The position numbers and the translations under genes are program-made. A stretch of 63,458 nt of DNA, the filler included, from Atractiella rhizophila (lineage: Eukaryota), in assembly GCA_021432655.1 (NCBI GenBank). It is 4 parts of 4 records of this genome, joined end to end, with 100 filler letters (N's around TTAATTAATTAA, not from the genome) between each part and the next. Parts side by side here need not be neighbours in the genome. Positions count along the whole stretch, not along the records: positions 1 to 30,676 come from MU271396.1; 3 more parts are not named here. One strand, given 5' to 3'. The notes below the pieces were generated by a model that was given only the letters and a program-made list of their open reading frames with translations, did no database searches and was not told the origin of the DNA. This document shows positions 16,080 to 59,349 of the stretch, one piece after another (the stretch's first letter is position 1; every line of letters starts with the position of its first letter).

Positions 16080-19000
16080 TCAAGAAGCTTTCCTCTCGTC
16101 CTTCCCACTCATACTCCTCGTCCTTGATAAGGGCTCTAGATTAGGCACGGCTGTGGGTATCGATAGAGTGTTGGCAGCACGAAATGAGGGCAGAGACCCA
16201 GGATCTCCGTGCTCTTCGGCTACCGACGAAAGATGGGATGGAGGAAGAGCAGAATGATGTCGAGGCGATGGGAGGGGAGAGAGAGCCGGAGATGTTGACA
16301 ATGACGAAGTTGAGGAGTGGATAGTGACGATATGAGGGAGCTCAACGGATTTCTTCTTCTTGTGTTGCCCCGTTAGACTGATGAATTCAAGGCTGCCGTT
16401 CGTCCGCGAGTGTCGGTCTTGACCTGTGGAACCGGACTCAATCCCTATCCCTATCCCGTTCCCCGTTCCTCCCTTCCCAACGTTCCCGCTCTGGTCCATC
16501 AACGCTGGGCGTGAGTCAAACAAACAGTCTTCATTTAAGGAGGTGACGAACCAGGTGAGAATGTCCGTCGTCCATTAGGACTGCGACCGTCAGACGGACC
16601 GAGCCAAGGCGAGTTGAGTGAAATGGGGGACGCTGCTCCGCTTGGACTCCCATCTGGATCGTATTGATCTAGAGCGGTGGTGCTTCTGCGCATCGACTTT
16701 CGAGCTGCCTGACGTCGCGAGGCTGTGGCGTTACTGAAGACTGGGAGAAGAAATCTGCCGAGACCATGAGCCCGAATACATCAGCAACTTGGGAAGGACA
16801 AACCGCTCGTCTAGGACAGTAAACCATTGCCCGTCACGCCAAACAGCGTTACCACCCATCGCAGGGTCAGCCCCTCCTTGGGGTAACACCTCATCCCCTG
16901 AATCCATGGAAGCGAGAGAGACGTCAGAATTCGACCTCGGCAAGCTTCGATGAGACTGTGCAGCCGCAGGATTGAGATGATCTGCGGTTTGAGTGGACTT
17001 TCTCCCCCCATACACTCCATCGTCCTTATATCCACGTTCGCGATCGCGATCGTCCACCATTCCATATCCTCCCTCCTGGAAATATCGCATGTCATCTTCA
17101 TCGTCACTGCTATCCTCCTCATCGACCACTCCTGTCCGCACGCCAACGACCTCAATCATCTTCATCGTCGTCCCTCCAAACACCATCATACTCAATACCA
17201 CATTCACAAGCACCGTCGTCCTCAAACTTTTCGCATGAGGTCCCTCAATGCCAGCAGCAAGAGCGACGTCGACAGCACCACGTAAGCCAGCCCAGAATAA
17301 CATCATCTGGTGCGCATGCGGGATCTCGGGTTGTGGCGTATGGTCATTGGCGTAAGGGAGAGCGCCAGACGAGGTCGCATGATGATGAGAGACGTTCGCA
17401 CCCAAAGCTTGATCTTTTGCGCGAAAGATCCAGTTGATGGCGTTGGACAGAGGGAAGACAGCACAATAGCGAGCCATGACGACAGCGACCTTTGAAAGGG
17501 TGTCAGCAGATGAATGTGACCCAGTGATGAATCTTACCGCAGTGACTGCTATGAAGAGCGGCTTATAAACTAAGTCGGTTTGTGTGAACAGTGTGAGGCC
17601 AAGGTAGATAAAGATGAAGTTCTCTGAAAGCTGCGAAAGAGTGTGGAAGATGTATTTCGTCGTCTTCTGCGTCTTGTGAGACATGTTGTGGTAGGCGTAA
17701 TGTTTTAGCGTGATACCACAGAAGAGTAGTGATACGATGCCTGCAAGAAGTGTGAGAACAAGTTTGAAGCTGAAACCGACAGAAAACTAACCGCTGACAT
17801 TGAGCGCATTGCTAAAGAAATAGCTGGTATAAGCGATGAGGAACACCAAACATGTTTCCGTATCTGGCCATTCGCCCAATCTGCACTCTCACGTTAGCGA
17901 CCACAACTTTAAGCCGAGATGGGGAAAGGGTACCTTGAATGCTTGAGCATCAAACTACATCCTAATCCAAACACAGCTCCAAGGAACATGGATATGGAGA
18001 ACACGAGCAAGAAGACGCCGACTCCGTGAATCACAGAATAAAGCGATGGTACCATGGTGTGAACGTGCTTCAGAGTTCTGCGATGTTGTCAGTCATAGAG
18101 ACAGAGGTACGAATAAGAGAGAACTCACTCGAACATGACGATGGCTACCGCATCATTGAGCAGAGACTCGCCAAATATGACGGAATAGAGTTTCGGTTCT
18201 ACCTTCAGAGCATTGAAGATTGCTAACGAAAGAGATGTTAGTATATGATTTCTGGCGTTTAAGCAGTTGAACACGGTTAGAGAATAGAAAGGCAATTTCA
18301 TTAGGGCAAAAGATAACCTCGGGTCATGGTCGCAAAAGCTGTGTTCAACTAGACTGAACCAGTTATTTTCAGTGACCCGTCAGAAACTTTGCCGGTATTG
18401 CAGCAATCAACTACCACCAGTCCTAATGTTTGCTGCCCCTGCGCCGGATTGGATAGCAGGGCTAGTCATGGTATGCTATCAACCCTCATCTGCCTTCGAA
18501 CAGCCTTCTGTCGTGGCGTAGGCTTTGCCTTTGTGCAAATGGTAACACGTTCATGCCACCCCTTCCGTTCTATTTGGACGCCTACAGAAAACAGTGCTCC
18601 ATGCTTCTCCATGGAAGCGAGGCAGGGAATACAACTCTCCAATGTCAATTGTCAACAGACTCAACAATAACTAGACTCCTTTCACGGATGCTAATCTGAT
18701 CTGGATGACCCTCCTAATTGGAGTTCTCCATGCAGAATGAAGAGAACAAAGCGAGACAAGTGAATGAGGCAGGAGCATATCCTCCGAGTATCTCTTCCTT
18801 GGCTGAGATACCTTCTCCTTTTGTCAGAAAAAGGAGGCACAACCAGGACGATCACTCCTTCCTCCTTTCACTGCGTGCTTTTCGAAGTCATACACCTTTC
18901 TTGGAACCCAAGCCTCTGCTCCTCTCTCTCCTCAGAATAGACACGCACCAAGAACAGTGACCGGATCCGTTGCACTCAAAGAACTTCCAAAAATCAAACA

Positions 19001-19596
19001 CTCGATGATACCCGGCTGGAGTCCTTCGAATCCCAGCTGAGACCAGAGGAAAACGACAAGACCGATGACCATCGCAGAGATGAAAGTCCCCTATCCCCAG
19101 CCAACAAGGTTAACGACTGCACTGTGAGTAAGGAAGGAGGTATGGAGGGACATACGACGAATGCGAAGCCCAATATGACTCCAAAGCTCCGGAAAAAGTG
19201 TCTTTGTTTCAAGTCGTACCCGCTGGATAAGATGATGGGCGGGAGAAGGACGTTCATCATGATGGTGTGTTTGAAAGAAACCATGGACTGGAGCCATGTC
19301 CCCGGACTGACTCTCAGCACGAGACCTACCACCATGCCCATGAGGAGGGCGATGATGGTTTCGTGGACGGTGCGTATGCGTCGGACGCGGAGGGTGTATG
19401 AAGTCCAGAAGGAGAGGATGAGTAAAAGGAGGACGAGGAGCAGGGCTATGTTTCCCATTTTCACTATGACTTTTGGCAACAAAGAAAGAAAGAAATACGC
19501 ACCGCGTGATGACCATAACTCTTCAGTCTCGGCGTCCATTGGCGGGAGGGTTGGGTTGTCAACTTCCTCCTCTGGATTGGGTAGATCGCGGTCCAT
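16080..19596 (-). CDS. NHX1: Endosomal Na+(K+)/H+ exchanger (multi-exon)
   Basis: VHETIIALLMGMVVG, VLLPPIILSSGYDL, FGSSLSATDPVTVL|AIFNALKVEPKLYSVIFGESLLNDAVAIVMF, LSENFIFIYLG, FWAGLRGAV. Confidence 0.95.
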
Positions 19597-20276
19597 ACTT
19601 CTGACCGTGGGCTGGTGCAAAGTCGTATCGTCCGTTAAAAATTCAATGTTAATTTAGGGGAGCTGTGCAGCAAAAAAAGAGGGAGCAGGGTTGCTGTGAC
19701 TGGTTGGATGGTGGAGGGTTGAAAAGGGTGTTGTCCTTATTTGCGTCTTGTTTGTTGGACTGGAACCGCCTTCCAAAGTTCTCACACTCTCCGGAACTTC
19801 TTCCAATTTACGAGGCGATATAAATATTTATTATTATCGTCACGTAGAGCGCCAAGTTATTGACGGGTTCTTCACACTTCTATCTTTCTTACTCGGTCGG
19901 GCATTGTCAGCACATTTACGTTTCTAGGCTGAATATGTTTATTTCTTTCAACAGGTCGTTCAATCCCTCCAAGCGAGACCCCGACCAACTTCATCCAGAG
20001 GGTTCTGGAAGAAGTTTATCATCGTAGCATTACATTATACTGTGCAAAAAGAGCATTATTTTGCATTAAAAAATATTGATTAACATCATAATGCAATGCG
20101 CCCAGTAACCTGTATATTATTTTCTCTGTGCTTCGTCTCCTCCGAGGGTTCCTTGTCAGCTTTTCCTTTCCTGTGTGGAAGTCTCGAACCGCTCGAATGG
20201 GAACTGTTCCCTGCGGCTTGCATACACTGGTCTTCCATCTCCTATCTTCCTTGTCATCCCTATTCAAACATTCCCC

Positions 20277-21240
20277 ATGGACGCGTATCTGCCAAACTTG
20301 ATTTACCTGACTCCACCGACACTACAATTGAAGGTTGCAACAATGGCACTCACCAAGTGGTCCTGACTCATATTTACGAGATAATATCGACTGAATCCGA
20401 CAACCCCAGAAACGAAACCGAAAACGACGTCGTCTGAATGTGTGACTGAGATCCTGAGTCGAGTCTACTGGTACGTCCACTTAACAAGCGGTCTCGCGGA
20501 GGGCAGGCGATTGTTCCATCCATGTTGTGGATGCTATTGGTTCAGTCCCCCGGTCTCCAACACCTCATATTCCCTTTTGACCGTCAGTCCATCGCCATCG
20601 AACGATTTGAGACCTTCCTTTCGACGGATCCACCTCCAACCCAGCAGCGATTCAGGAGCGGCAGCTCGGTATACAGTCGAGCGGAACATCTTCGTGTATA
20701 TGGCTCTGCCAAATCTCCTCCTCAGCAAGATCCAGAAGCTTGCGACGGTCTCCACGAACTCTCGCACTGTTGCAGGAACTCGAAGGATGCACAACGCGCG
20801 TCTCTTGATCTTGCTGGGATGAGAAGTTTTTTGCAAGTCCAGAGTTTAACTAACCAAGTTAAAAGGTTACCCACCTGAGAATTTTGTTCAACCTGAAAAA
20901 CTTCATCCTTCAGAGTTACGATCTCACTCTTACCCATCCTATCTCGATTTTTGGCAATAGCAAGACGTTACGTTTACCTCCACCACCATCCAGCGAAGAG
21001 CCTCACGTCCATCTGAATTATGAATTCGATTTCAACGACGGCGGAGCATGGGTGTTCCGGGGACATCTTCCAGGCACATAACCAACCTCATGCATGGGAT
21101 AGACGAGGAGAAAGAAGCGGTTACTTAGACTCGTAAAGGCTCCGTGTGGTCTTCCATCGCTGCCCCAACCGGTCCAAAAAAGGACAGTGTAGTCTTCGAA
21201 TCGGAGGGAGAGAATCTTCTATCAAATCCTCTATCTTAAC
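20277..21240 (+). pseudogene. Possible degraded F-box/LRR-like gene
   Basis: Protein-like, Leu-rich reading frames (LQHLIFP..., LFNLKNFILQSYDL) interrupted by stops and frame changes at the edge of the repeat block. Confidence 0.3.
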
Positions 21241-21399
21241 GTATGGTTGCTACAGTTTTCGCCCGCGGTACCTGGCCGAGTTTGTACCTTCCCAAGAAGG
21301 CGCACCCTAGGTTCAACGACTGCAACGCTAGGGTTACCTGGGACGATTTGGACGGCGCTCTAGTCTCTCTTACAGAGGTACGTCTAAGCAACGCTACTA

Positions 21400-24300
21400 A
21401 CATAGATCTCTAACACCTGACCGCCTGGTAGGCTGTGACGTTCACGTTCGTCACTCGGTACTCTACCTTGATCTACAACTCAAGGGTTTGTGTATGGCAG
21501 TACCGCAGATGCTCGTAGAATAGGGTGAAGTGTGGAAAGCGAAGTATAAGGAATGGTTGGAGTCGTCGTTAAAGCAGGGTTTCTTGGTAGGGCAAGGAAA
21601 CGCGTAACGAGAAGCAGTGGTGGCAGTGTTTAAAGAAGCCAGAGCACTCTCGGTCGGAGCTTAGGCTTCGCGTATTATGCAAGTTAGGGCTACGCTCACT
21701 TCTACCTTTCGAGTCAGGGCTGGAGCATGCCACAAGGTTGCACCCTCGCAGGTGGAACTGGACGTATGAGAGGATAACGGGTATAGGTGTTACTCCGGGC
21801 TAACGTCTTACTCTCTCTCTTTACAACGGAAGTGTCAAGAGAGCATACTAATGGGTTAGGTTCAGGGGGCCAAAGCACAAGCGTTCTCCTCTTCATTGCG
21901 GAAACTTTTAAAACCAGCCAGACTGCAACCGCATAACAACTTTACAAACTGCCTACCCTTCCTACTCGCTGGTCTCCCTTTATACTAGGCCTTGTAGACC
22001 AGTTCAGTTCCATTCGGTCTCACTTCTTAGGTCTTCGTCATGTTCAACTGACTTTTCATAAGTTTAACTGCTTGTCACTCAACAATACCAAAGTCTCCCT
22101 TTCGTGAAGTCATAGCCGAGAGTTGCGTTACGACGAAGTCTTACCACCCTCTTCTTTGTCGACGCACGCTTTGTTACAATTAAAAAGCGTCGTAACAGTG
22201 TATTCACCATTAATTAATAAAGCACCCCACCCTTACCACACTTCTATAGGGGTGGGGACGTTCCGTTTAGACACGCATGGAGAGCGAGGTTGTCGTGGTT
22301 TCTTTTATCGGAGTATAAAAGATTCGAGTAGTTCAGGAGGAAGCCCTTACATTATAGGAGAGAAGAATATTAAGAGTCTCCAGGTTAGTTTGAGAAAGGT
22401 GAGTTTTCTTTTAGGGAGCTGACGTCGTTGACGAAGATTGTGGAGTTAGGGCCGTGACTATTGAAGACCGGGTTAGGGTAGAGGTCCATATCTTCGCTAC
22501 GCTACATGAGCTCTGTATAACCACGACTAAACACGCACTCCTCTTACTCTACCGGTTCCAGCTAGCAGCGTTACTAACTAGCTCTGGGCTAACAGCCTCA
22601 ACACCTCTTGTAACGCGACAGCGCGCAGAAAGACGCGTTCGACTTGGCAACTGAAAACTATATAAAAATAAAAACTCCGCTAACTCAGAGCCATACGATC
22701 CTATCTCGTACCGAGTTCACAAGTTCGCGAGTTCATATTGCCTTCGTGTTAGTTTCTCACACAACACTATGGTACGTTAAGCTTAAAGTGTGAAGTAAGT
22801 TTCTAAAATAGTTGTTGGAGAAAATAATCGTCGGTCTCAGACCCGTTTCGAGGAGCGCCCTCATCGGTCCTAGAACAACGAAAGACGTTCTAGGCAAGGG
22901 GGTATCAGATACTTGAACGCAGTCACTAGCTAGAGTACTCTTATCAGCTCTTTGTCTGTAGGTTGGAGGGATTGCCGAGCTTTGTACCGCTGTTCCAAGC
23001 AACGATCGCGCTGCAAGACTACTGAGAACTGTTACGGTTTATTGTGAAGCAGACCGTAAAAGACCATTTGCTGAAAGAAAGGGCTTCGACAGTACGACGG
23101 ATTCAGGAGTTGAAACCTGAACCTTTATTCTTACATGGAAAGCGTTTGCGAAGACGATGGACACGGCCGCATTACATAGGACCTCGCCGCTTGTGGACAA
23201 ACTGAGGTAAGAGTTGTCGCCGTTGCTGTATAAAAGGTATCAGGAGACCCTACAGCTACTAACCTTCTCCGCACAGGCCTAGTTCCCACTTTCTTTCGTC
23301 TATCCTCGGTAGCAGAACGAACGCTCCCTACTCAGGTCTCTTCACCAACGACCGCATCGATGGTCCAACGTGTAGCTCCTGGCAGTAAAGACCCTAGCTA
23401 GATCGCATCAGGCAGTGAAGACGAAATCGTAGCTTCGACGCGTAGGTAGCAGTCGAACCCCTATCTTTTCGCCTCGTCTTTCTTTGAGTATGACCAGCTG
23501 AAAGTGTCAGGGAAAACACTCGAGAGGATCCAATCACTCCGGCCTGGTTTGCTTTCAGAAGTGCGGAAGTCGAAACCGTGGCAGGTGGACACGAAACGGA
23601 AGGCGTTTCACGAAATTCTCGCCATTCAGTTCTCGTGTGAGCTTGTAAGCTTTAAAATGGAAGAGCGCTTTTAAAAGCTGCAGTATTGGACTGTCACGTT
23701 GGCGCTTCTGCTTTAAACGCGGCCGTTTTCGTAGAGAACGAGGAAGTTCGCAAGGTTATAGCCGCCGCTGTTAAAGCGTAGGGAAACGTCGCTCTCGAAA
23801 CCGTCTGAGAAATCTTCCTAGTGCTCATTACCGAGACTGCGCCATCCGGCACCCTCTAACTCGCTCTCGAAACTAGTGACTCGGAGGAACGTAAGGTCAC
23901 CTTGGCTGCTGGCGCTTCTCACCCCGCCTACCTAGTAACGACTAACAGTATAGCTTCTCCTCATTTAGACCAGTCCCAAAGCTCACTGACATCTGATAAA
24001 AGCTACAATAACAACTCCACACTTAGCGAGCAGAGAGAAAATACGTGCCAACCATTGATGAGCGGCGGCTTCCTCGACTGCCCCGAATGCTCGGTTCAGC
24101 CTCCAGTAGCATCGACCGCCGGGGTCTGTGTCTTACGACTTACTTCACTTTCGAGCCCTTCCTGCCACTCACGGAAAGCTCACCTCTACCTACTTCAGGC
24201 ATAAGCCTCCACTTTCCCTTGAAGAAAGTAAAAGGAAGGTTTTGACGTCGCCACCAAGATGGATCTAACCGAAGTATCGTAGTGCATTCACTGTGGCTAT

Positions 24301-24620
24301 ACTTTCAAACCAGAGAACCAAAGGACGGTTAGAGAGGCCCTCTTTTTCTGCTCGGCCGCGTACCCGGTTGCTAGTTTCTTACGTCTGTTCGAAGAACAGT
24401 TTCTGTTAACGAAGCTGGACTTGGCCGTCTTAAGTTATAGGTTCAAGAAGGGTTAGCGCAACGGCTGAGCCTACACCTTCACATACGTCCATGCGGCCCT
24501 ACCAGCCCAGAGCATTAACACGGTGGCTGGGGCCTAACGTCCCGCCGCCCAATCTATACCTGCACTCCATAAAGATCGCGCCAACAAAGATAAGCTACTG
24601 TCGCTAACCTGGTTATAGAT
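21400..24620 (+). mobile_element. Heavily decayed non-LTR retrotransposon (LINE) remnant
   Basis: Collinear relics: gaaagggcttcgacagt (EKAFD-like, 23077), caggagaccct (QGDP-like, 23241), ctcttcaccaacgac (LFTND from LFADD by G>A, 23338), and a C-terminal CIHC...LFFC zinc-knuckle-like motif (24283-24351). Boundaries approximate. Confidence 0.5.
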
Positions 24621-25843
24621 AAGGAGATTCTAAGTACATAGCTAGGAATGGAGGTTAGGAATGGAGATTTTCGGTAGGAATGGATTCGGTAGACAAGAAC
24701 CGTACTCAGTATTTCGCGTGAAAACTCGTAAGTATGGAGGGAGTGGTCCGTATAACTTTGCTTTACTTAATGTGGTAGAATGACGTATACGAACGCGGAA
24801 AGACTTCGGCGCTCCTTTAAAATAAGACTTCCCCCATTTTTTTACGCAAAGTATGACCTGAGCTTGGGAGTGTTCTCAGTGTCATCCCAAGTTCCCCGAT
24901 AGGGAACGCTCATCCAACTGAACATGTAGAGTTTCAGACTCTCTTTCTCATGTGACCGTCACTGCTTTGTTCACGGTGAGTATACGTAAGGCGGAATAGC
25001 AGCAGGTGGAGGAAGGGATCTTGGTTCGGCGTTTGAGGACCGAAAACTCGCGCCTTTATCCCCGTTCTACCGCACCTGAGACTTTCGTGTTGTGTAACCG
25101 TTAACCATGTCTTAGTAAGACCAGGCGGTTTGGTTTGTCTCTCTGTGCACGGCTAAAAAACTCTAATGAAATATACTGCTCCACCACAAGGTATAAACCC
25201 ACTCGACTGCACCACCTGTGCTTTCTCTATTAAGTTAATAAGTGTGTAAAAGACGGTTAACGTCGGCTCCTCTGCCATCACTAAATATCAAACTATCTCT
25301 TCCTTCACCTTGTACTAGTTCGCCGTTTCGAAACCTACACCCGGTTGCTCGCTCATTAAGCGAGGCATCGCTCAGGAGGTTTCCTATTTCGACGGAGAAG
25401 TTTAAGACTTCGAGAACCGTGCGCAGGCCAGGTCGTGTCTGCACAAGATACAGTCGCCATACTTTCAGCTACTACCGCCCTCTTGGTAGACTAGAAGACT
25501 TCTACAACGTGCCTATATGCAGCGCCACGTTCTTCGGGTGCGCTACGTTACACTGATGCAAAAGGGTCTCAATGTAGGATAGTGTAGCATACAGTAATAT
25601 GCTCGGTTTCGTACCTACATTGAGTGAACAGTGAGAGTCCGTCGAACCTGTTTAAGAGGTGGAGGTAGGGGTGTAGAAGTTCCTCGTCTTTCATGTAGCC
25701 TATCGAAAAAGGGTCAACGGTCCGCGGTATACGAAGTCCTTGTTTCCTGTCCGGTATGGCTCGCTCCGCCGCTATCTGGCTATGAAGTACCTCGTACCAA
25801 ACAAACTCCGAAAGTAGTTTGCAGAAACGTTACTGACTGCGCC

Positions 25844-25868
25844 NNNNNNNNNNNNNNNNNNNNNNNNN
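25844..25868. other. Assembly gap
   Basis: N run. Confidence 1.
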
Positions 25869-25962
25869 CATCCAGTGTTCCATGTAGGTCTAATACGAAA
25901 AGTCAACGAAGACGACATCCCGGGCAGAGTCCAGTTGCCCAAACCGCCTCCGGAATTGGTGA

Positions 25963-26250
25963 ATGGAATTGAAGAATGGGAAGTGGAGAAAAATTGTCGA
26001 TGGAAAATGGTTCGGTACCCGAAATAGAGTTTTCAAATATCGCGTTCGATACAAAGGGTATTCACCATCTGAGGACGAGTGGATCAACATCGCAGATCTA
26101 GAAAATTCGCAGGACGCTATAAAAGACTATCACACTGCACACCCTCTCGCAGTTCGTCCCGATTCCATACCGAACTCCGCAAAAAATCGCCCAAATGCGC
26201 GTTTTCGTAACCTTCGACGAAAACACGCTGAAGGGTCTTCCTCACTTTAA
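25963..26250 (+). CDS. Chromodomain at the C-terminus of retrotransposon Pol/integrase (partial)
   Basis: (EW/VE)KIVDGKW...FKYRVRYKGYSPSEDEWINIADLENSQDAIKDYH; the frame looks broken just upstream, next to the gap. Confidence 0.85.
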   Translation: MELKNGKWRKIVDGKWFGTRNRVFKYRVRYKGYSPSEDEWINIADLENSQDAIKDYHTAHPLAVRPDSIPNSAKNRPNARFRNLRRKHAEGSSSL

Positions 26251-26599
26251 GGGGTCCAACACCCCTATATGCCTTGCCGGGTGAAATCCTAGTCTTTGAG
26301 ACTTAGGTCAAGGGCAAGGCGCCGACTTGCTCCTCAACGGGCAAGTCGGCGACTTGGTCGTTGGTGAGTCCATTCGTCGCCCGTCAAAGACGAATGCTCA
26401 TTGCGTTCTCGCACCATCACCAATGTCGCATTTACGAAAATTGCCCTCAATCGCGAGGTCCCCTCCCCCTCACTTTAAGAGGTCCTACTCCTCTACATGC
26501 CTCGCTGGGTGAATCCCTAGTCACATTGTTGAACATAGGTCTAGGCGAGGCGCCGGTCTGTTCCTCAACGGACAGATCGGCGACCGGTTTGTTGGTGAG
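26241..26599 (+). ncRNA. Two tandem ~130-nt structured RNA elements in the retrotransposon 3' UTR (26241-26368, 26469-26599)
   Basis: Same stems in both copies with compensatory changes, e.g. GGGG/CCCC vs GAGG/CCTC and GCCTTGCC/GGCAAGGC vs GCCTCGCT/GGCGAGGC. Confidence 0.65.
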
Positions 26600-26907
26600 T
26601 TGTCCAGCCCGTTTTCGCAGAATGGACACTTATTACACCAAAAACAACACCTGGTCAACTTCGAAAAATTCCTCAAATTGCGAGGTGCACAATGTCTCTT
26701 TGCTCCAACAATTTCATCTCTGCCCGCAGCGGCAACTGGTACTTCAGGCACTTTTCGCAAAATTGGCAAACCTTACGAAGCAGAAGTTTCTGCTTACTGC
26801 AAGCACCACAGAAACTGGGGGGTGTTGTCAGGTTTGCATCTTACGCAAATCGGCGCCCGTTCGCCGGATTGCGTCTCCTATCGCCCATTTGCGTTCCCTG
26901 CGAATCG

Positions 26908-27135
26908 GTCGCCACTGCGCGTCGCCACTGCGTCTGCGCCACTCTCCCGTCGCCCACTGCGTCTCCCGTCGCCACTGCGTCTCCCGTCGCCACTGCGTCT
27001 CCCGTCGCCACTGCGTCTCCCGTCGCCACTGCGTCTCCCGTCGCCACTGCGTCTCCCGTCGCCACTGCGTCTCCCGTCGCCACTGCGTCTCCCGTCGCCA
27101 CTGCGTCTCCCGTCGCCACTGCGTCTCCCGTCGCC
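26908..27135 (+). repeat. 18-bp tandem minisatellite (GTCGCCACTGCGTCTCCC)n inside the left LTR, ~10 near-perfect copies plus degenerate flanks
   Basis: Read directly; it generates the repetitive RRHCVS/PSPLRL/ASPVAT ORFs. Confidence 0.97.
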
Positions 27136-27431
27136 TATTTGCACGCAGTGCAAATCGGCGCCCGTTCGCCCGTTCGCCCATTTGCGCCTACATCACCACT
27201 TAGCCCAATTGTGCCTATCCTCCTCTTATTAACTCCGCGTAATCCCACTGTCACTTCCCCTTCTAGTTCTCTCACATGTTTCATCTGCTCTCCTCTACGC
27301 TCTGTGGCAGTGTTATTCCGCTTGTATATATAGATCAGAGAGTAGTGGAGGTGACCTCAGAGTATTCTCTTAGGTTCAAGGCGCCATGTGTTAGGGCTAA
27401 CACTATGTGCGGTCGCCGATAGGCGATGCGT

Positions 27432-27504
27432 CTGTAGTGGAGGTAAACCTAAGAGATAGTATGGCATGAGAAGACTAACCTGTAGTGGAGGTAAACCTAA
27501 GAGA
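27432..27504. repeat. 25-bp direct repeat CTGTAGTGGAGGTAAACCTAAGAGA in the right LTR
   Basis: Copies at 27432-27456 and 27480-27504. Confidence 0.9.
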
Positions 27505-28001
27505 ATACTCTGAGGTCACCACCACTACATCTCGATGTATATATACATATTTAAAAGCACTGCCATAAACTGTAACATACGATTCTTGAAACATGTAAGA
27601 TAGCTAGATCAGGAAAGCAACAAAGGGAATACTCGGAAATAAGGCATGTTGAACAGTACAAGTGAGAAAGGATAATAAGGCAATAATGGAGACGGTGCAG
27701 ACCGGCGAAATGTATAAGGTTTGCTGAGCGGCGATTCGTGTAAGATAGGGAAAGCGGCGATCAGCGCGTACGTGAGCAAAGCGGCGATGGGGGGGCACGT
27801 GATCCCATAACGTCGTGAAGTAGGTCACGTGACTTCGTGTGGTGCATTTCAATAATGCGTAGGGGCAAGCCTGACAACACCCCCAAATTTCTGACTAGTG
27901 TACGTGAGTCACGGAATTTTTTAAGGTTAAGGTTTGCGCTTGGTTGGGGCGAAATTTTTCCCAATTTTTCCACCATCACCTTCCCTTCTTTTCCTGCAAA
28001 A

Positions 28002-29498
28002 ATGTCTACCGACGCGCAACTCTTCGACTTCGTTTTGGCGAACAAAGATAGAAAGGAAACCACAGTTTACTGGGATGTGGAGAAGGCGAAAGAGGTAAAT
28101 TTTGGCCGATTCGCCGATGTGTTGGAGTGGGGTAGAAGGTGCTATCCTTTGTACATCAAATTTTGTGATGAGGTACAGGCAGAGGTGAGTTTCCTGTCTC
28201 GTATGATGCGGTTGAGCGTGTGTGGTAACTTGTCGGCGATGGAAAAGGTGCGATCGGTTTATGAAACAGCAAAAGGGTTTGGTGATGGGCGCAATTTGTC
28301 GTTTCCGCTGCGGATGTCTGTGGAAGACATGCAGGTCTTGCGGGATGAACTTCGGCTCTGGGTCGAACAAGCGGCGCTCGTCGCGGAGGAAGCGGCGAAA
28401 TTCGGTTTTCAGCCTTCTGAATCGGCGAATGGGGACCCTATTTTGCGAAAGAAGGAACAGGAACTTTTCCTGTCTGACACGAAAAAGCGTCTGGCTAAAG
28501 AGGAGGAGGAGCGAAAACGGGCGGCGCTTGAAAGTAGGCGTCGAGCGGCGGAGGAGAATTTGCGTGCTCAGAAATCGGGTGCAGCGGCAAAAGGACCCGA
28601 GGTTGGGGTAGTGAGGGCGTTATCCGATTATCTGGTGACTGCGACTAATTTTATTTTATCCTCGGCTTTGGGGGATCGAAACCCGTTCGCTGGTGCGCCG
28701 GTCGCCGAATTTGTTGTGCGTGACGGAAAAATTCAAATCGGCGAAAAGGAATTAGATGCGTCGAAATATCGGTACTTCTGGCCAGGTACTCGCGAGGCCT
28801 ATTCTCATGCTGCGGCAAACATCAATCTGGGTGAGCTAGAACTCGAATTGGTCATCACGACTCCCCGTGCAAATCCGCGTATTCTTCCCACATTGGCGAG
28901 TATCGGGACGCAGCGATGTAGCAATTGTACTGGCAAAGTTCGTGCGGCGCCTGTCAAAGCAGCGAAAAAGAAAGCCAAGGGCGACAACGACTCCCAGGTG
29001 TGCGACTTTTCTGCTGGGCATGTCGCAACTGCGTTCGGTCGTGTCTGCTCGCGCTGTCACAATTCCCGCAAAAGATGCGAGGTTTTGCCCTTGGGGTATC
29101 TGCGAGAGCTTTCGATGTTGGTCGTATTGTCGACTACGTTCCATCCTAAACGTGTCGGCGACGGGAAAAAACGACCTTCGGCTTTGGTCGAGAGCAACTA
29201 CGAGAATATTTCGGACGCCGACGAGGGATCCCCCGCACAATCGATGTTGAGCGCCGCTCGGTTGTACTCTGAAGCATTTAGCCTGGATTTTGCGCAAACT
29301 ATGCTCGCGGCCGCTAGGTTAAATGCACAAGCGGCGGCGGACGCTCTTAAGGCCGCCAAATTGCAAATGGAGTTGTACAAGAGGAGGCAGGATGATCGTG
29401 CCGCTGAGGATGGGGCTAGCGAGGGTTCTGTGGTGGAAGGTGTGATCGCCGACGTGACCGGTAGGGTAAGTTCATCCATTTTTCGGCGATCCGTCTGA
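28002..29498 (+). CDS. Intronless 498-aa retrotransposon antisense ORF: coiled coil plus atypical Zn(II)2Cys6 cluster
   Basis: ATG in AAAATG context at 28002; charged coiled coil (KKRLAKEEEERKRAALESRRRAAEE); C-x2-C-x24-C-x14-C-x2-C-x6-C at 28917-29078. Confidence 0.75.
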   Translation: MSTDAQLFDFVLANKDRKETTVYWDVEKAKEVNFGRFADVLEWGRRCYPLYIKFCDEVQAEVSFLSRMMRLSVCGNLSAMEKVRSVYETAKGFGDGRNLSFPLRMSVEDMQVLRDELRLWVEQAALVAEEAAKFGFQPSESANGDPILRKKEQELFLSDTKKRLAKEEEERKRAALESRRRAAEENLRAQKSGAAAKGPEVGVVRALSDYLVTATNFILSSALGDRNPFAGAPVAEFVVRDGKIQIGEKELDASKYRYFWPGTREAYSHAAANINLGELELELVITTPRANPRILPTLASIGTQRCSNCTGKVRAAPVKAAKKKAKGDNDSQVCDFSAGHVATAFGRVCSRCHNSRKRCEVLPLGYLRELSMLVVLSTTFHPKRVGDGKKRPSALVESNYENISDADEGSPAQSMLSAARLYSEAFSLDFAQTMLAAARLNAQAAADALKAAKLQMELYKRRQDDRAAEDGASEGSVVEGVIADVTGRVSSSIFRRSV

Positions 29499-30206
29499 CT
29501 ATCTAGATGTTGTGTAGGCATCGTAGGGCACCTGACCCATCGCCAGCTGCAGAAAATGCGTCGTATCGGCGAAATTGAGTTTCGACTAGGCGACTTAAAC
29601 CCTTCGTTGGCCCAGGAGGCCTATGATAATTCCAATTATGATGCCTATTCTGTTTCTTCTTCGAGCAGTAGCGATAGTGAGGAGTCCGTCCAGAGTGGTG
29701 ATTTTGATCTCTGAAATGTATGCGTTTCGCGTCTCCGTATTAGCGTCGAATTGCCGGGCGGCGACAGGTGTAAAATTGTCGTAGTGGCAAAGGAACACGT
29801 AGTGAGTGGGGAGAACAATGGCAAATAGGGTGCTGCAGGACTCACACTCCCCTGTCTAGGGGAGGACCCTCAGGCGTTCCTCCCACTAGCTACCCAAGCT
29901 TATTTTGGAGCTCGCAACCAAACAGGCCTGGGCCACGCGCTCGTGGACACAACGCGCGGTATAACGGGTCGGCGATTCGCGTGCACGTCGCCGGTCTGCC
30001 TTCTGCGTGGAAGAATGTGTTGTCGAGCGAACAAGCATGGGGAAGCAAAGGTAAAAGCAAAAATAGGAAACAATAATCATCAAAACCAGAACAGAGTGTA
30101 GCATAAGGGGAAGCAGTTGTGTACCTCGCAATCGAGGGATTTTTTGAGATTTGACCGGTATTGTTTTGGTGTAGTAAGCAACTGTTTGTGAAAATGGGGC
30201 GAGTAA

Positions 30207-30564
30207 CGCACCGACAAACCGGTCGCCGATCTGTCTGTTGAGGAACAGACCGGCGCCTCGCTTAGACCTATGTTCAACAATGTGACTAGGGATTCACCCA
30301 GCGAGGCATGTAGAGGAGTAGGACCTCTTAAAGTGAGGGGGAGGGGACCTCGCGATTGAGGGCAATTTTCGTGAATGCGACATTGGTGATGGTGCGAGAA
30401 CGCAATGAGCATTCGTCTTTGATGGGCGACGAATGGACTCACCAACGACCAAGTCGCCGACTTGTCCGTTGAGGAACAAGTCGGCGCCTTGCCTTGACCT
30501 AAGTATCAAAGACTAGGATTTCACCCGGCAAGGCATATAGGGGTGTTGGACCCCTTAAAGTGAG
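30207..30564 (-). ncRNA. Two tandem structured RNA elements in the 3' UTR of the right element (30438-30564, 30207-30337)
   Basis: Reverse-complement homologues of 26241-26599 with further pairing-preserving changes (GCTC/GGGC -> GTTC/GGAC; GCT/GGC -> GCT/AGC). Confidence 0.65.
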
Positions 30565-30676
30565 GAAGACCCTCCAGCGCGTTTTCGTCGAAGGTTACGG
30601 AAACGCGTATTTGGGCGATTTTTGGCGGAGTTCGGTATGGAATCGGGACGAACTGCGAGAGGGTGTGCAGTGTGAT

Positions 30677-30776
30677 NNNNNNNNNNNNNNNNNNNNNNNN
30701 NNNNNNNNNNNNNNNNNNNNTTAATTAATTAANNNNNNNNNNNNNNNNNNNNNNNNNNNNNNNNNNNNNNNNNNNN
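30677..30776. other. Assembly gap with TTAATTAATTAA spacer
   Basis: N run with an all-frame stop linker at 30721-30732. Confidence 1.
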
Positions 30777-33410: not shown

Positions 33411-33510
33411 NNNNNNNNNNNNNNNNNNNNNNNNNNNNNNNNNNNNNNNNNNNNTTAATTAATTAANNNNNNNNNNNNNNNNNNNNNNNNNNNNNNNNNN
33501 NNNNNNNNNN
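33411..33510. other. Assembly gap with TTAATTAATTAA spacer
   Basis: N run with linker at 33455-33466. Confidence 1.
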
Positions 33511-51569: not shown

Positions 51570-52892
51570 TCAGGTTACAACTGGAGGGAGATGGAAGTCG
51601 GCATCTGACTTGGTCTGATTGAAAACTGCATCCTTCAGGATCTGGGAAATCAGGCCGTGCTGTGATTCGACTGCAATCTTCGTGCTGTCTTTGACCGCCT
51701 TCTGAAGCTGCGTTTCATCCTTCTTGTCTTTGTCTCCTTTCCCTTTTAGCCCACTGATGATGGGTGCGAGGTGGGCATGCGAACAACGCGTCGAGATACT
51801 CGATTCGCATCGATGGAACTTTTCTTGTAGATCTGAGATCTGGCTCGTCGTATACGCTCGGTTCTTCAGCCAGCTAGCTCAGTAAAAGTTGACCATGGGG
51901 AACACGACGAACAGAGATGAGCGGCGACTGTGACAGAGTCATAACCCAGTACTTGTTCCACAACAAGTCGAGGATTCGAGAATCGAGAGACGATTTGAAG
52001 TGTGAAATCTCAAGAGGATAATATTGAGACGCATGCACGCCAAAATCTTCAATTTTCGAAAGAGGAATAGATTGATATTCTGACGCTGTGGCATTGGGAG
52101 GAGTGTAGCCTTCCGGGTAGGTGCGGAAAGCACCGATGTCTACTCGACCGGCTGAGATAGTGCGGTTTGGATCGATCTAGTTGACGCGTCAAGAGCGAAC
52201 GAGACGGAGGAAGGAGGAGGAAATGCTCACCACAATGGCAAGGAAAGGATCAGTGTAAGTTTGGTTGGTCATTTGGGTCATGACATCAATTCCAGAGAGC
52301 CAGCATCCGTATCCGGGATGTGAGTGATACCACCCGACAATATTCTCCATCCTCCCCACCTGTATTCAAAAGCTCAATGACTCTCACCTTCACAAGCAAG
52401 GCACGTACGTGCTTCGAGCGATCGTTAAATTCCACCATGTACTCATACGCCTCATTGGCAGCGTTGACTCGCGTTTCCGTTCCTTCTACGGGCAGAGCAA
52501 AAGCATCCATTACGACGAAAGTATCTCCGTCGATCTTGCCTTGCATCATGCCCATGACTTCGTACGCGCCGCCTGAGCGAGCGTGCATTACCTTTCTTCT
52601 AGATTAGCGCAGGTACAACTAAGACCGCGGAACGCGTACCATTTTGATCAAAGCAATGGCGGAGATCTTGACTTTCTTGAAGTAATGAGGGTCCTGCTTC
52701 CATGGCTTCTGTCAAAGCAATGGCGGAGATCTTGACTTTCTTGAAGTAATGAGGGTCCTGCTTCCATGGCCTCTGCTCCAGTATCTTTCGCTGCTCGTCT
52801 CCATCGTATCGAAAGATTTTGTCCGCTTCGATGGGTTGGACATCGTTGGCAAGCTCCCAGGTGAGTTTTGAGGTGGACGCTTCCCCTGTCAT
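51570..52892 (-). CDS. CSN5: COP9 signalosome subunit 5 (JAMM deneddylase); frameshifted as assembled by a 64-bp duplication
   Basis: [71 protein letters not shown]. Confidence 0.92.
52648..52775. repeat. 64-bp tandem duplication in CSN5 exon 1
   Basis: 52648-52711 and 52712-52775 are identical except for one T/C. Confidence 0.95.
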
Positions 52893-59249: not shown

Positions 59250-59349
59250 NNNNNNNNNNNNNNNNNNNNNNNNNNNNNNNNNNNNNNNNNNNNTTAATTA
59301 ATTAANNNNNNNNNNNNNNNNNNNNNNNNNNNNNNNNNNNNNNNNNNNN
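59250..59349. other. Assembly gap with TTAATTAATTAA spacer
   Basis: N run with linker at 59294-59305. Confidence 1.

Follow-up and report, generated by a model that had tools for sequence, protein, structure and literature searches.

Introduction

In Rous sarcoma virus (RSV) and avian leukosis virus (ALV), hairpin-forming direct repeats (DR) of about 100 nt are located in the 3' region, upstream of the long terminal repeat (LTR) at the 3' end, two copies being present in RSV and one in ALV. According to the available portion of PMC9143442, these repeats act on the export of unspliced RNA, and a title cited there places a packaging locus in the same repeat. The same portion describes the constitutive transport element (CTE) of Mason-Pfizer monkey virus (MPMV) as a structured RNA that acts in cis from the 3' end of the genome of a simple retroelement and that a host factor recognises, and the RSV stability element (RSE) as a CU-rich stretch placed immediately behind a termination codon with a long 3' untranslated region (UTR) after it. 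The present analysis concerns a tandem module of RNA hairpins that lies between the pol stop codon and the polypurine tract (PPT) of a Ty3/gypsy chromovirus, in a stretch of 63,458 nt made of four joined parts of the Atractiella rhizophila genome (assembly GCA_021432655.1), the whole of which is referred to as the window. The analysis shows that this module exists, that it belongs to the element and not to its LTR, and that its pairing has been kept through sequence divergence.

The cis-acting RNA signals of LTR retrotransposons have been mapped in a few model elements only. The 3' UTR of Ty3 holds the 3' half of a bipartite primer binding site, and its UTRs are needed for RNA localisation and packaging, as far as the accessible parts of PMC11381356 and PMC4974528 report; the former still calls the packaging and localisation signals of Ty3 'not precisely defined'. 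In plant Sireviruses, conserved non-coding motifs cluster in the linker between pol and the LTR, upstream of the 3' LTR (PMC2829016, in the part available). Duplicated structured RNA modules, with both copies retained, are also described for the 3' UTR of flaviviruses in the available extract of PMC6325252. The module described here is probably a functional and so far unannotated RNA that belongs to one young chromovirus family.

Results

A 229-nt unit is present in four copies

A first, sequence-only reading of this DNA had proposed a tandem covarying fold of about 130 nt, present in four copies and starting at the Pol stop codon. Run with filters off, a covariance model built from the four copies recovers precisely these in the 63-kb window, at 145–153 bits. 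Next in score, at 18 bits, come antisense hits that overlap the same copies, and the remaining hits stay at or below 11.2 bits. Copies A1 (core 26241–26369) and B1 (26470–26599) are on the plus strand in one element, hereafter element 1; copies A2 (30436–30564) and B2 (30207–30336) are on the minus strand in a second element, element 2. The tandem arrangement was thus recovered. The length was not: the true repeat unit is 229 nt, as the spacers of about 100 nt that follow the cores are also homologous, with 51.2% identity between A1 and B1 against 74.6% for the core formed by stems P2 to P4. The units extend over 26241–26469 (A1, plus strand), 26470–26698 (B1, plus), 30337–30564 (A2, minus) and 30111–30336 (B2, minus).

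All the stems and motifs that had been listed, including the hairpins and GGGTGAA, are present at the places given for them. In stem P1, CTCACT (26241–26246) can pair with GGTGAG (26363–26368), the B counterparts being 26469–26474 and 26594–26599. Hairpin P2 (26250–26266 in A1) is closed by AGGGG/CCCCT in A and by AGAGG/CCTCT in B. P3 (26271–26320) pairs GCCTTGCC (26271–26278) with GGCAAGGC (26313–26320) in A1 and GCCTCGCT with GGCGAGGC in B1, with the variant AGCGAGGC in B2, and encloses the internal-loop motif GGGTGAA (26279–26285 and 26507–26513). P4 is a hairpin of 12 base pairs (26321–26350) with the loop CTCAAC (26333–26338), and its equivalent in B1 is at 26552–26581. A longer stem domain, P5, follows at 26350–26428 in A1 and at 26582–26656 in B1, and unit A1 also contains a small CCUC/GAGG hairpin near 26445–26458. 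The consensus fold comprises 41 pairs, two of which are broken in B2, where GGUGAG reads GGUGCG. The stop codon of element 1 (TAA, 26248–26250) falls inside copy A, between P1 and P2, as had been noted.

The predicted folding energies of the cores are −63.5, −50.0, −56.7 and −48.7 kcal/mol for A1, B1, A2 and B2. Compared with dinucleotide shuffles, these correspond to z-scores of −6.1, −3.0, −5.3 (−5.29) and −3.4 (−3.44), respectively. The apical loop of P3 (26293–26304 and 26521–26536) contains UUGA in all four copies, extended to UUGAG in A1 and to GUUGA in B1 and B2, which is complementary to the CUCAAC loop of P4 (26333–26338 and 26564–26569). Among 20000 shuffles of the loops, a complementary 5-mer of this kind turns up 417 and 301 times, two events that are not independent since the A and B loops are homologous. 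From the sequence, a loop-loop contact between P3 and P4 is possible, either inside one RNA or between two.

Base pairing is retained between copies A and B

The cores of A1 and B1 differ by 27 substitutions. In a placement test, the minimum-free-energy fold of one copy was imposed on the other type, and the number of surviving pairs was compared with that obtained when the same substitutions, with the same kinds of letters, were placed at random. B1 keeps 42 of the 46 pairs of the A1 fold, a result equalled in 30 of 20000 placements, and A1 keeps 42 of the 44 pairs of the B1 fold (1 of 20000). When the test was limited to P2–P4, 34 of 37 pairs were kept (22 of 20000). The earlier statement that differences between copies mostly preserve pairing is therefore borne out.

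Over the 41 consensus pairs and four copies, 98.8% of the 164 cells are paired, against 28.6–43.3% when the 3' partners are slid by one to three columns. Changes on both sides were found in six of the 41 pairs and in none in all six slid controls. Column shuffles reached six double-changed pairs in 31 of 500 cases, and in 0 of 500 the observed covariation score or percentage of paired cells. The covariation that had been proposed is thus one between two independent sequence types only. One further compensatory pair, C 26330 with G 26341 in A1, is replaced by U with A in A2. At these two positions, the alternative letters are both seen in X1 contigs and also in one contig from X13, in data that are unphased.

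The stem cells that are not Watson-Crick pairs are G-U on the sense strand. The antisense of B folds with a z-score of −1.69 (13 of 200 shuffles as good), compared with −3.0 for the sense strand, and the antisense fold of A1 keeps 37 of 45 pairs in B1, compared with 42 of 46 in the sense orientation, in line with the strand preference that had been suggested from the G-U pairs. Taken together, the placement tests, the antisense folding and the G-U cells indicate that the structure is conserved, with the sense strand modestly favoured.

Alternative partners of GGUGAG

P5 is predicted in both types, with −28.5 kcal/mol (z −3.85) in A1 and −24.2 kcal/mol (z −2.95) in B1. The letters of its outer stem differ: CGAC/GUCG and UUGGU/ACCAA in A; GACC/GGUC, GGU/ACC and UUGU/ACAA in B. 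GGUGAG is shared between two rival stems, as it is the 3' strand of P1 and also part of P5. Unconstrained and P1-forced folds of the full units have energies of −89.8 and −85.2 kcal/mol for A1, −78.1 and −70.1 for B1, −83.0 and −78.4 for A2, and −69.8 and −63.1 for B2. The P1-forced fold thus loses in all four units, by 4.6–8.0 kcal/mol. P1 is without variation in three copies and broken in B2, and shows no covariation. In its favour, no blocks shared without change by A and B are longer than its two strands, and the highly conserved, abundant block stops directly after the GGTGAG of B. The closing stem CTCACT/GGTGAG of the sequence-only reading was consequently not upheld: it does not covary, it is disrupted in one copy, and it is outcompeted by an alternative stem in the 229-nt context. 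In these folding models, either P1 or P5 may provide the partner of GGUGAG, and the four-way junction is a putative one. A two-state switch, in which the 5'-splice-site-like GGUGAG would pair either with the upstream CUCACU or with P5, together with the P3–P4 loop contact, appears improbable.

Location in a Ty3/gypsy chromovirus

The 3' end of Pol of element 1 was delimited at 25869–26250 (plus strand) from a match to the Pfam family Chromo, three-frame translation and the runs of N. The chromodomain was matched with an E-value of 1.6e-07 and 31.5 bits, the cut-off being 25.1, and just upstream is a motif of the integrase C-terminus, HPVFHV.... This is a 3' fragment of 382 nt only, situated behind an N gap (25844–25868) and with a frameshift near 25990. 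The idea that the module starts at the Pol stop codon must therefore be qualified: the stop is inside A1, and the Pol in question is an integrase end and a chromodomain in a broken frame. Downstream of unit B1, the rest of the 3' UTR (26699–26809, plus strand) is variable and without counterpart in element 2, as judged from the end of the homology between the two elements and from contig depth. A polypurine tract, AGAAACTGGGGGG, was read at 26810–26822 (plus strand). It abuts the 3' LTR (26823–27378, plus strand), which starts with TG and ends with CA and was delimited by a jump in depth, loose contig ends and alignment to an inverted LTR. This LTR holds a tandem array of the 18-nt sequence TCTCCCGTCGCCACTGCG (26943–27135; 10.7 copies, 99% matches), which is missing from the inverted, diverged LTR at 27492–27885.

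The PPT/LTR junction of element 1 is found again, inverted, at 27856–27893. The diverged LTR that aligns there (27492–27885, minus strand) is presumably the 3' LTR of element 2, and the polypurine tract that precedes it presumably belongs to the same element. The two LTRs can be aligned at their ends only: 39 nt around the PPT/LTR junction are 84.6% identical and 150 nt of the LTR end 72.7%, with no alignment in between. The inverted junction, followed by the diverged LTR from 27885 to 27492, indicates two elements arranged tail to tail. In the 113 nt between the facing LTR ends, a 25-nt piece of an LTR end is directly repeated without mismatch (27432–27456 and 27480–27504), and LTR-end likeness is also seen between 27296–27376 and 27494–27574. 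These repeats hint at nested or rearranged insertions.

Of element 2, the end of the chromodomain frame is visible at 30555–30676 (minus strand; stop at 30557–30555), up to the artificial N linker that begins at 30677. About 2.2 kb separate unit B2 from its PPT. This stretch includes an open reading frame (ORF) of 559 codons (27819–29498, plus strand), antisense to element 2, with a methionine at residue 62. The ORF matches no Pfam family, and its best protein-atlas score, 0.81, does not rise above noise; an antisense gene that element 2 carries and an unrelated insert are both conceivable.

An integrase C-terminus followed by a chromodomain, and a polypurine tract abutting an LTR with TG and CA ends, are the features of a Ty3/gypsy chromovirus, and a high-copy member of this group is the host of the module. 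The ORFs of 18941–25553, which is a different contig, gave no match to a reverse transcriptase or integrase domain, and no longer protein containing the chromodomain fragment was retrieved at E ≤ 0.001.

Conservation between elements and in other data sets

Elements 1 and 2 are 95.5% identical over the end of pol, 96.9% over A, 98.0% over spacer A and 96.9% over B. Identity drops to 66.7% from 26600 onward, and alignable homology stops at 26692/30117. The A–B block has stayed as tight as the coding part in a tail that otherwise drifts, which reflects either selection or recombination.

For run X1, 942 Logan contigs were aligned to the window, and their summed depth, which is not a copy number, was used to place boundaries only. 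It amounts to 15–47 thousand over 25869–26603, alike for the pol end and A–B, then to 2–6 thousand over 26604–26778, and to 91–151 thousand from bin 26814. In 18 X1 contigs, the portion before 26826 is unlike the window (agreement 0.39). The jump in depth and these loose ends support the LTR boundary, and as the units are 5' of the PPT, they belong to the internal 3' linker, outside the LTR. The X1 variants over 25869–26900 are rich in transitions (C>T at 19 places, G>A at 21, A>G at 10 and T>C at 9), an excess that cytosine deamination or a repeat-mutation process would give.

The pieces found in other runs are near-identical. A contig from X3, a rhizosphere metagenome, covers 26212–26594 with four other letters and one gap; an X6 contig covers 26467–26643 with none; and X13 contigs cover 26105–26402 with eight and 26535–26643 with 13. 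Stretches of the window that no contig of X3, X6 or X13 covers carry no information. All relatives reached are 88–100% alike. Loci returned by pattern scans were judged with a covariance model, R1. In prokaryote genome contigs, a first scan returned 68 loci, all of them rejected by R1 (at most 16.5 bits, E 0.1), and a second returned none. In metagenome contigs, a pattern made from the three unpaired motifs only gave 12 loci, none of which matched R1 at E ≤ 1. In viral contigs, a protein scan was without relative, and the five loci from two pattern scans did not match R1.

Comparison with known RNA families

No match to Rfam 15 was found at the gathering score in the whole window. At E ≤ 10 over 26100–26800, only two rows at chance level were returned, mir-1677 with 18 bits (gathering score 84) and STnc320 with 14.7 bits (gathering score 50), which agrees with the module having been called unannotated. 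Hammerhead ribozymes have conserved CUGANGA and GAAA sequences around a three-way junction. No hammerhead core CTGANGA is present in 26200–26830, and the same Rfam rows include no hammerhead. The HDV-like, twister, twister-sister, hatchet, pistol and hairpin ribozymes each have families in Rfam, and none of these is among the rows for that region. The failure to fit a hammerhead, HDV, twister or hairpin ribozyme consensus was thus reproduced. No conserved pseudoknot was found, and ARAGORN returned no tRNA or tRNA-like gene in 25800–30700.

Cyclisation by pairing between the cores and the LTR of element 1 was considered and rejected, as the predicted duplexes (−85.0 and −86.9) are no better than chance (shuffled means −85.1 and −81.1). 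A limited full-text search of the literature gave no description of a conserved structured module in the linker between pol and the PPT of fungal chromoviruses. The units lie between the pol stop (26248–26250) and the PPT at 26810, which is the position of the retroviral 3' transport and DR-type elements. Of what defines such an element, position is what the sequence shows, and no membership is claimed.

Genomic context

Host-type genes are present on either side of the elements, encoding a sugar transporter, a glutaredoxin, an EF-hand protein, FRG1 and a Na/H exchanger. They also encode a protein with a TOR FAT domain, a polysaccharide deacetylase, MOR2/PAG1 and a protein with importin-alpha-like Arm repeats. 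Three artificial linkers (30677–30776, 33411–33510 and 59250–59349), each composed of N44, TTAATTAATTAA and N44, and the gap of 25 N at 25844–25868 show that the window is a stitched draft scaffold, so that adjoining contigs are possibly not true neighbours. The units of both elements are inside their own contig (25869–30676). The linkers were returned by the repeat finder as repeat families D2 and I3–I5. In the region of the importin-alpha-like gene, a 64-nt unit is present as two tandem copies with 98% matches (52648–52775).

Discussion

On balance, the evidence leans towards the module being a selected, lineage-specific cis-acting RNA structure of the genomic RNA of the element. Each 229-nt unit would fold on the sense strand into the adjacent hairpins P2, P3 with its GGGUGAA, and P4 with its 12 base pairs and CUCAAC loop, followed by the long and less conserved P5. 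Carried by covarying stems, the invariant GGGUGAA and CUCAAC loops may be sites of protein recognition, most likely by the Gag/nucleocapsid of the element itself, otherwise by a host factor that handles RNA. The two copies could then provide a bivalent platform that routes the unspliced genomic RNA to capture and packaging, or to cytoplasmic accumulation and stability, a role likened by analogy to that of the 3' direct-repeat and transport elements of simple retroviruses. Within this reading, a role in packaging or capture is a tentative proposal; one in export or stability is more doubtful, and so are other roles. Export, packaging and NMD protection, as put forward in the sequence-only reading, are putative functions. 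A role linked to termination is less likely, since unit B retains UUUAAG 229 nt away from any used stop.

Several observations weigh against such a selected structure. The covariation rests on two sequence types, A and B, which are paralogues in one young family, and four sequences are too few for statistics of R-scape grade. Template switching by reverse transcriptase at quasi-palindromes can produce double changes that look compensatory in one step, without selection. The antisense folds also pass the placement test, weakly for A1 in B1 (37 of 45 pairs; 926 of 20000 placements) and clearly for B1 in A1 (35 of 38 pairs; 3 of 20000). Both copies of the element in the window look dead, with a shifted chromodomain frame and the two broken pairs of B2. 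Applied to B, a covariance model of the P5 of A (R2) finds the right places with only 9.7 bits (E 0.46) in B1 and 6.8 bits (E 2.2) in B2, scores so low that the 3' half of the unit is weakly supported and should be taken as a lead rather than a result. The CTCAAC loop, described beforehand as invariant, is so within the window; one X13 contig has a T at 26569 and also an A at 26595 that breaks P1. Finally, no homologue beyond the near-identical relatives was found in the scans described above.

Part of this would be expected if a hairpin-rich linker piece of 229 nt had been duplicated neutrally, a frequent event between pol and the LTR of LTR retrotransposons, its stems persisting through the youth of the family or through quasi-palindrome correction by template switching, and without function. 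That all reachable relatives are 88–100% alike, with no distant homologue in the scans made, fits this explanation, as does the success of one antisense test, which palindromes at the DNA level would also produce. The region is moreover prone to tandem repeats, with the 18-nt array of 10.7 copies nearby, and tandem repeats in this region are reported for plant elements in the available part of PMC3648361. Neutral duplication is nevertheless rather unlikely, because 42 of 46 pairs have outlasted a drift of the core to 74.6% and of the spacer to 51.2% identity, a result that 30 of 20000 random placements equal, because such mismatches as are left read G-U and not A-C in the sense orientation, and because A–B matches the coding end in conservation between the elements, with only 66.7% for the sequence that follows. 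Motifs acting in the DNA, such as the binding sites of an enhancer or of an antisense promoter, would account for the short invariant GGGTGAA and CCTCAAC of both units and would suit the antisense ORF downstream of the units in element 2; the palindromic repeated motifs of Sirevirus LTRs are read as transcriptional elements in the accessible part of PMC2829016. Binding sites need no compensatory changes in stems of 8–12 base pairs, and a bias of G-U pairs to one strand speaks for RNA, which makes this explanation very unlikely.

The edges of the units may also be read as splicing signals, spacer A (26364–26479, 116 nt) being a 3'-UTR intron or the sites being decoys hidden by hairpins. GGTGAGT at the 3' edges of the cores (26363–26369 and 26594–26600) is a candidate 5' splice site, and a pyrimidine tract with CTCAC and AAG (26459–26479, also 26236–26251) a candidate branch point and 3' splice site. 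These edges coincide exactly with CCTCACTTTAAG and GTTGGTGAGT, the longest two blocks that A and B share unchanged; an 18-nt run of pyrimidines comes before B; conservation is higher in the cores than in the spacers, as it is in exons relative to introns; and gaps in host genes (around 35055 and 48182) show by eye GTGAGT, GTGCGT, and CTAAC or CTCAC shortly before AG. Against this, none of the four joints listed among the 942 X1 contigs links 26363 to 26480, and stop codons in all three frames of the cores indicate that these are not coding exons. The pair of edge motifs is also simply self-complementary, as stem P1, and the compensatory changes in P2–P4 would be left unexplained, so that splicing is an improbable account of the repeats. 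Each unit could further be taken for a new ribozyme, a possibility that the sequence-only reading also raised, one that is self-cleaving and processes the transcript in its 3' region. A compact fold of several helices whose unpaired motifs are invariant, repeated in tandem within a retroelement, would fit such a role. This is scarcely credible, given that no Rfam ribozyme is matched at E ≤ 10 over 26100–26800, that CUGANGA and a conserved pseudoknot are lacking, and that cleavage 5' of the PPT and 3' LTR would presumably destroy the template for reverse transcription.

If, as part of the improbable switch described above, P3 and P4 make contact between two genomic RNAs, dimerisation or packaging would be directed from the 3' UTR. 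Such a signal would contrast with the 5' leader used by Ty1, Ty3 and retroviruses. The module is compact and duplicated, with clear stems, invariant loops and natural compensatory variants, and it comes from a very abundant chromovirus. It is for these features a ready target for finding how such elements mark their genomic RNA. As read from the sequence, its reach is limited to one young family, and its function is a proposal.

Among known systems, the RSV and ALV direct repeats resemble the units described here as repeated hairpins upstream of the 3' LTR, going by the portion of PMC9143442 cited. The RSV copies flank a gene whereas the present units are in tandem, and the likeness shown is one of position rather than of sequence or fold; the host is here a fungus-like eukaryote, and the element is not known to be spliced. 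With the MPMV CTE, as outlined in the same portion, the module has in common a structured RNA near the 3' end of the element, known in this case from sequence alone. The fold found here, however, consists of three separate hairpins and a 3' stem and has no Rfam match, whereas the CTE forms a single long hairpin that contains two symmetric internal loops. In the manner of the RSE, within the same limits of the source, unit A begins at the pol stop, and the 18-nt pyrimidine run lies ahead of unit B; unlike the RSE, unit B has its UUUAAG 229 nt off any used stop, and the tie to termination looks incidental.

The flavivirus modules, in the extract available, are likewise tandem and structured and located in a 3' UTR, which is an analogy only. 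They belong to RNA viruses of animals, and the fold is here an unrelated one. Duplicates in flavivirus 3' UTRs have been linked to exonuclease resistance. As in the Sireviruses, in the part of PMC2829016 available, conserved non-coding sequence occupies the linker upstream of the 3' LTR. Those are Ty1/copia elements, and their motifs comprise repeated polypurine tracts together with a short inverted repeat, in contrast to the 229-nt multi-hairpin unit of this chromovirus. Ty3 differs in that its 3' UTR is the U3-R portion of the LTR, whereas the module is located upstream of the PPT and outside the LTR. The host element nevertheless belongs to the same superfamily as Ty3, whose 3' UTR, according to the accessible parts of PMC11381356 and PMC4974528, takes part in functions of the genomic RNA.

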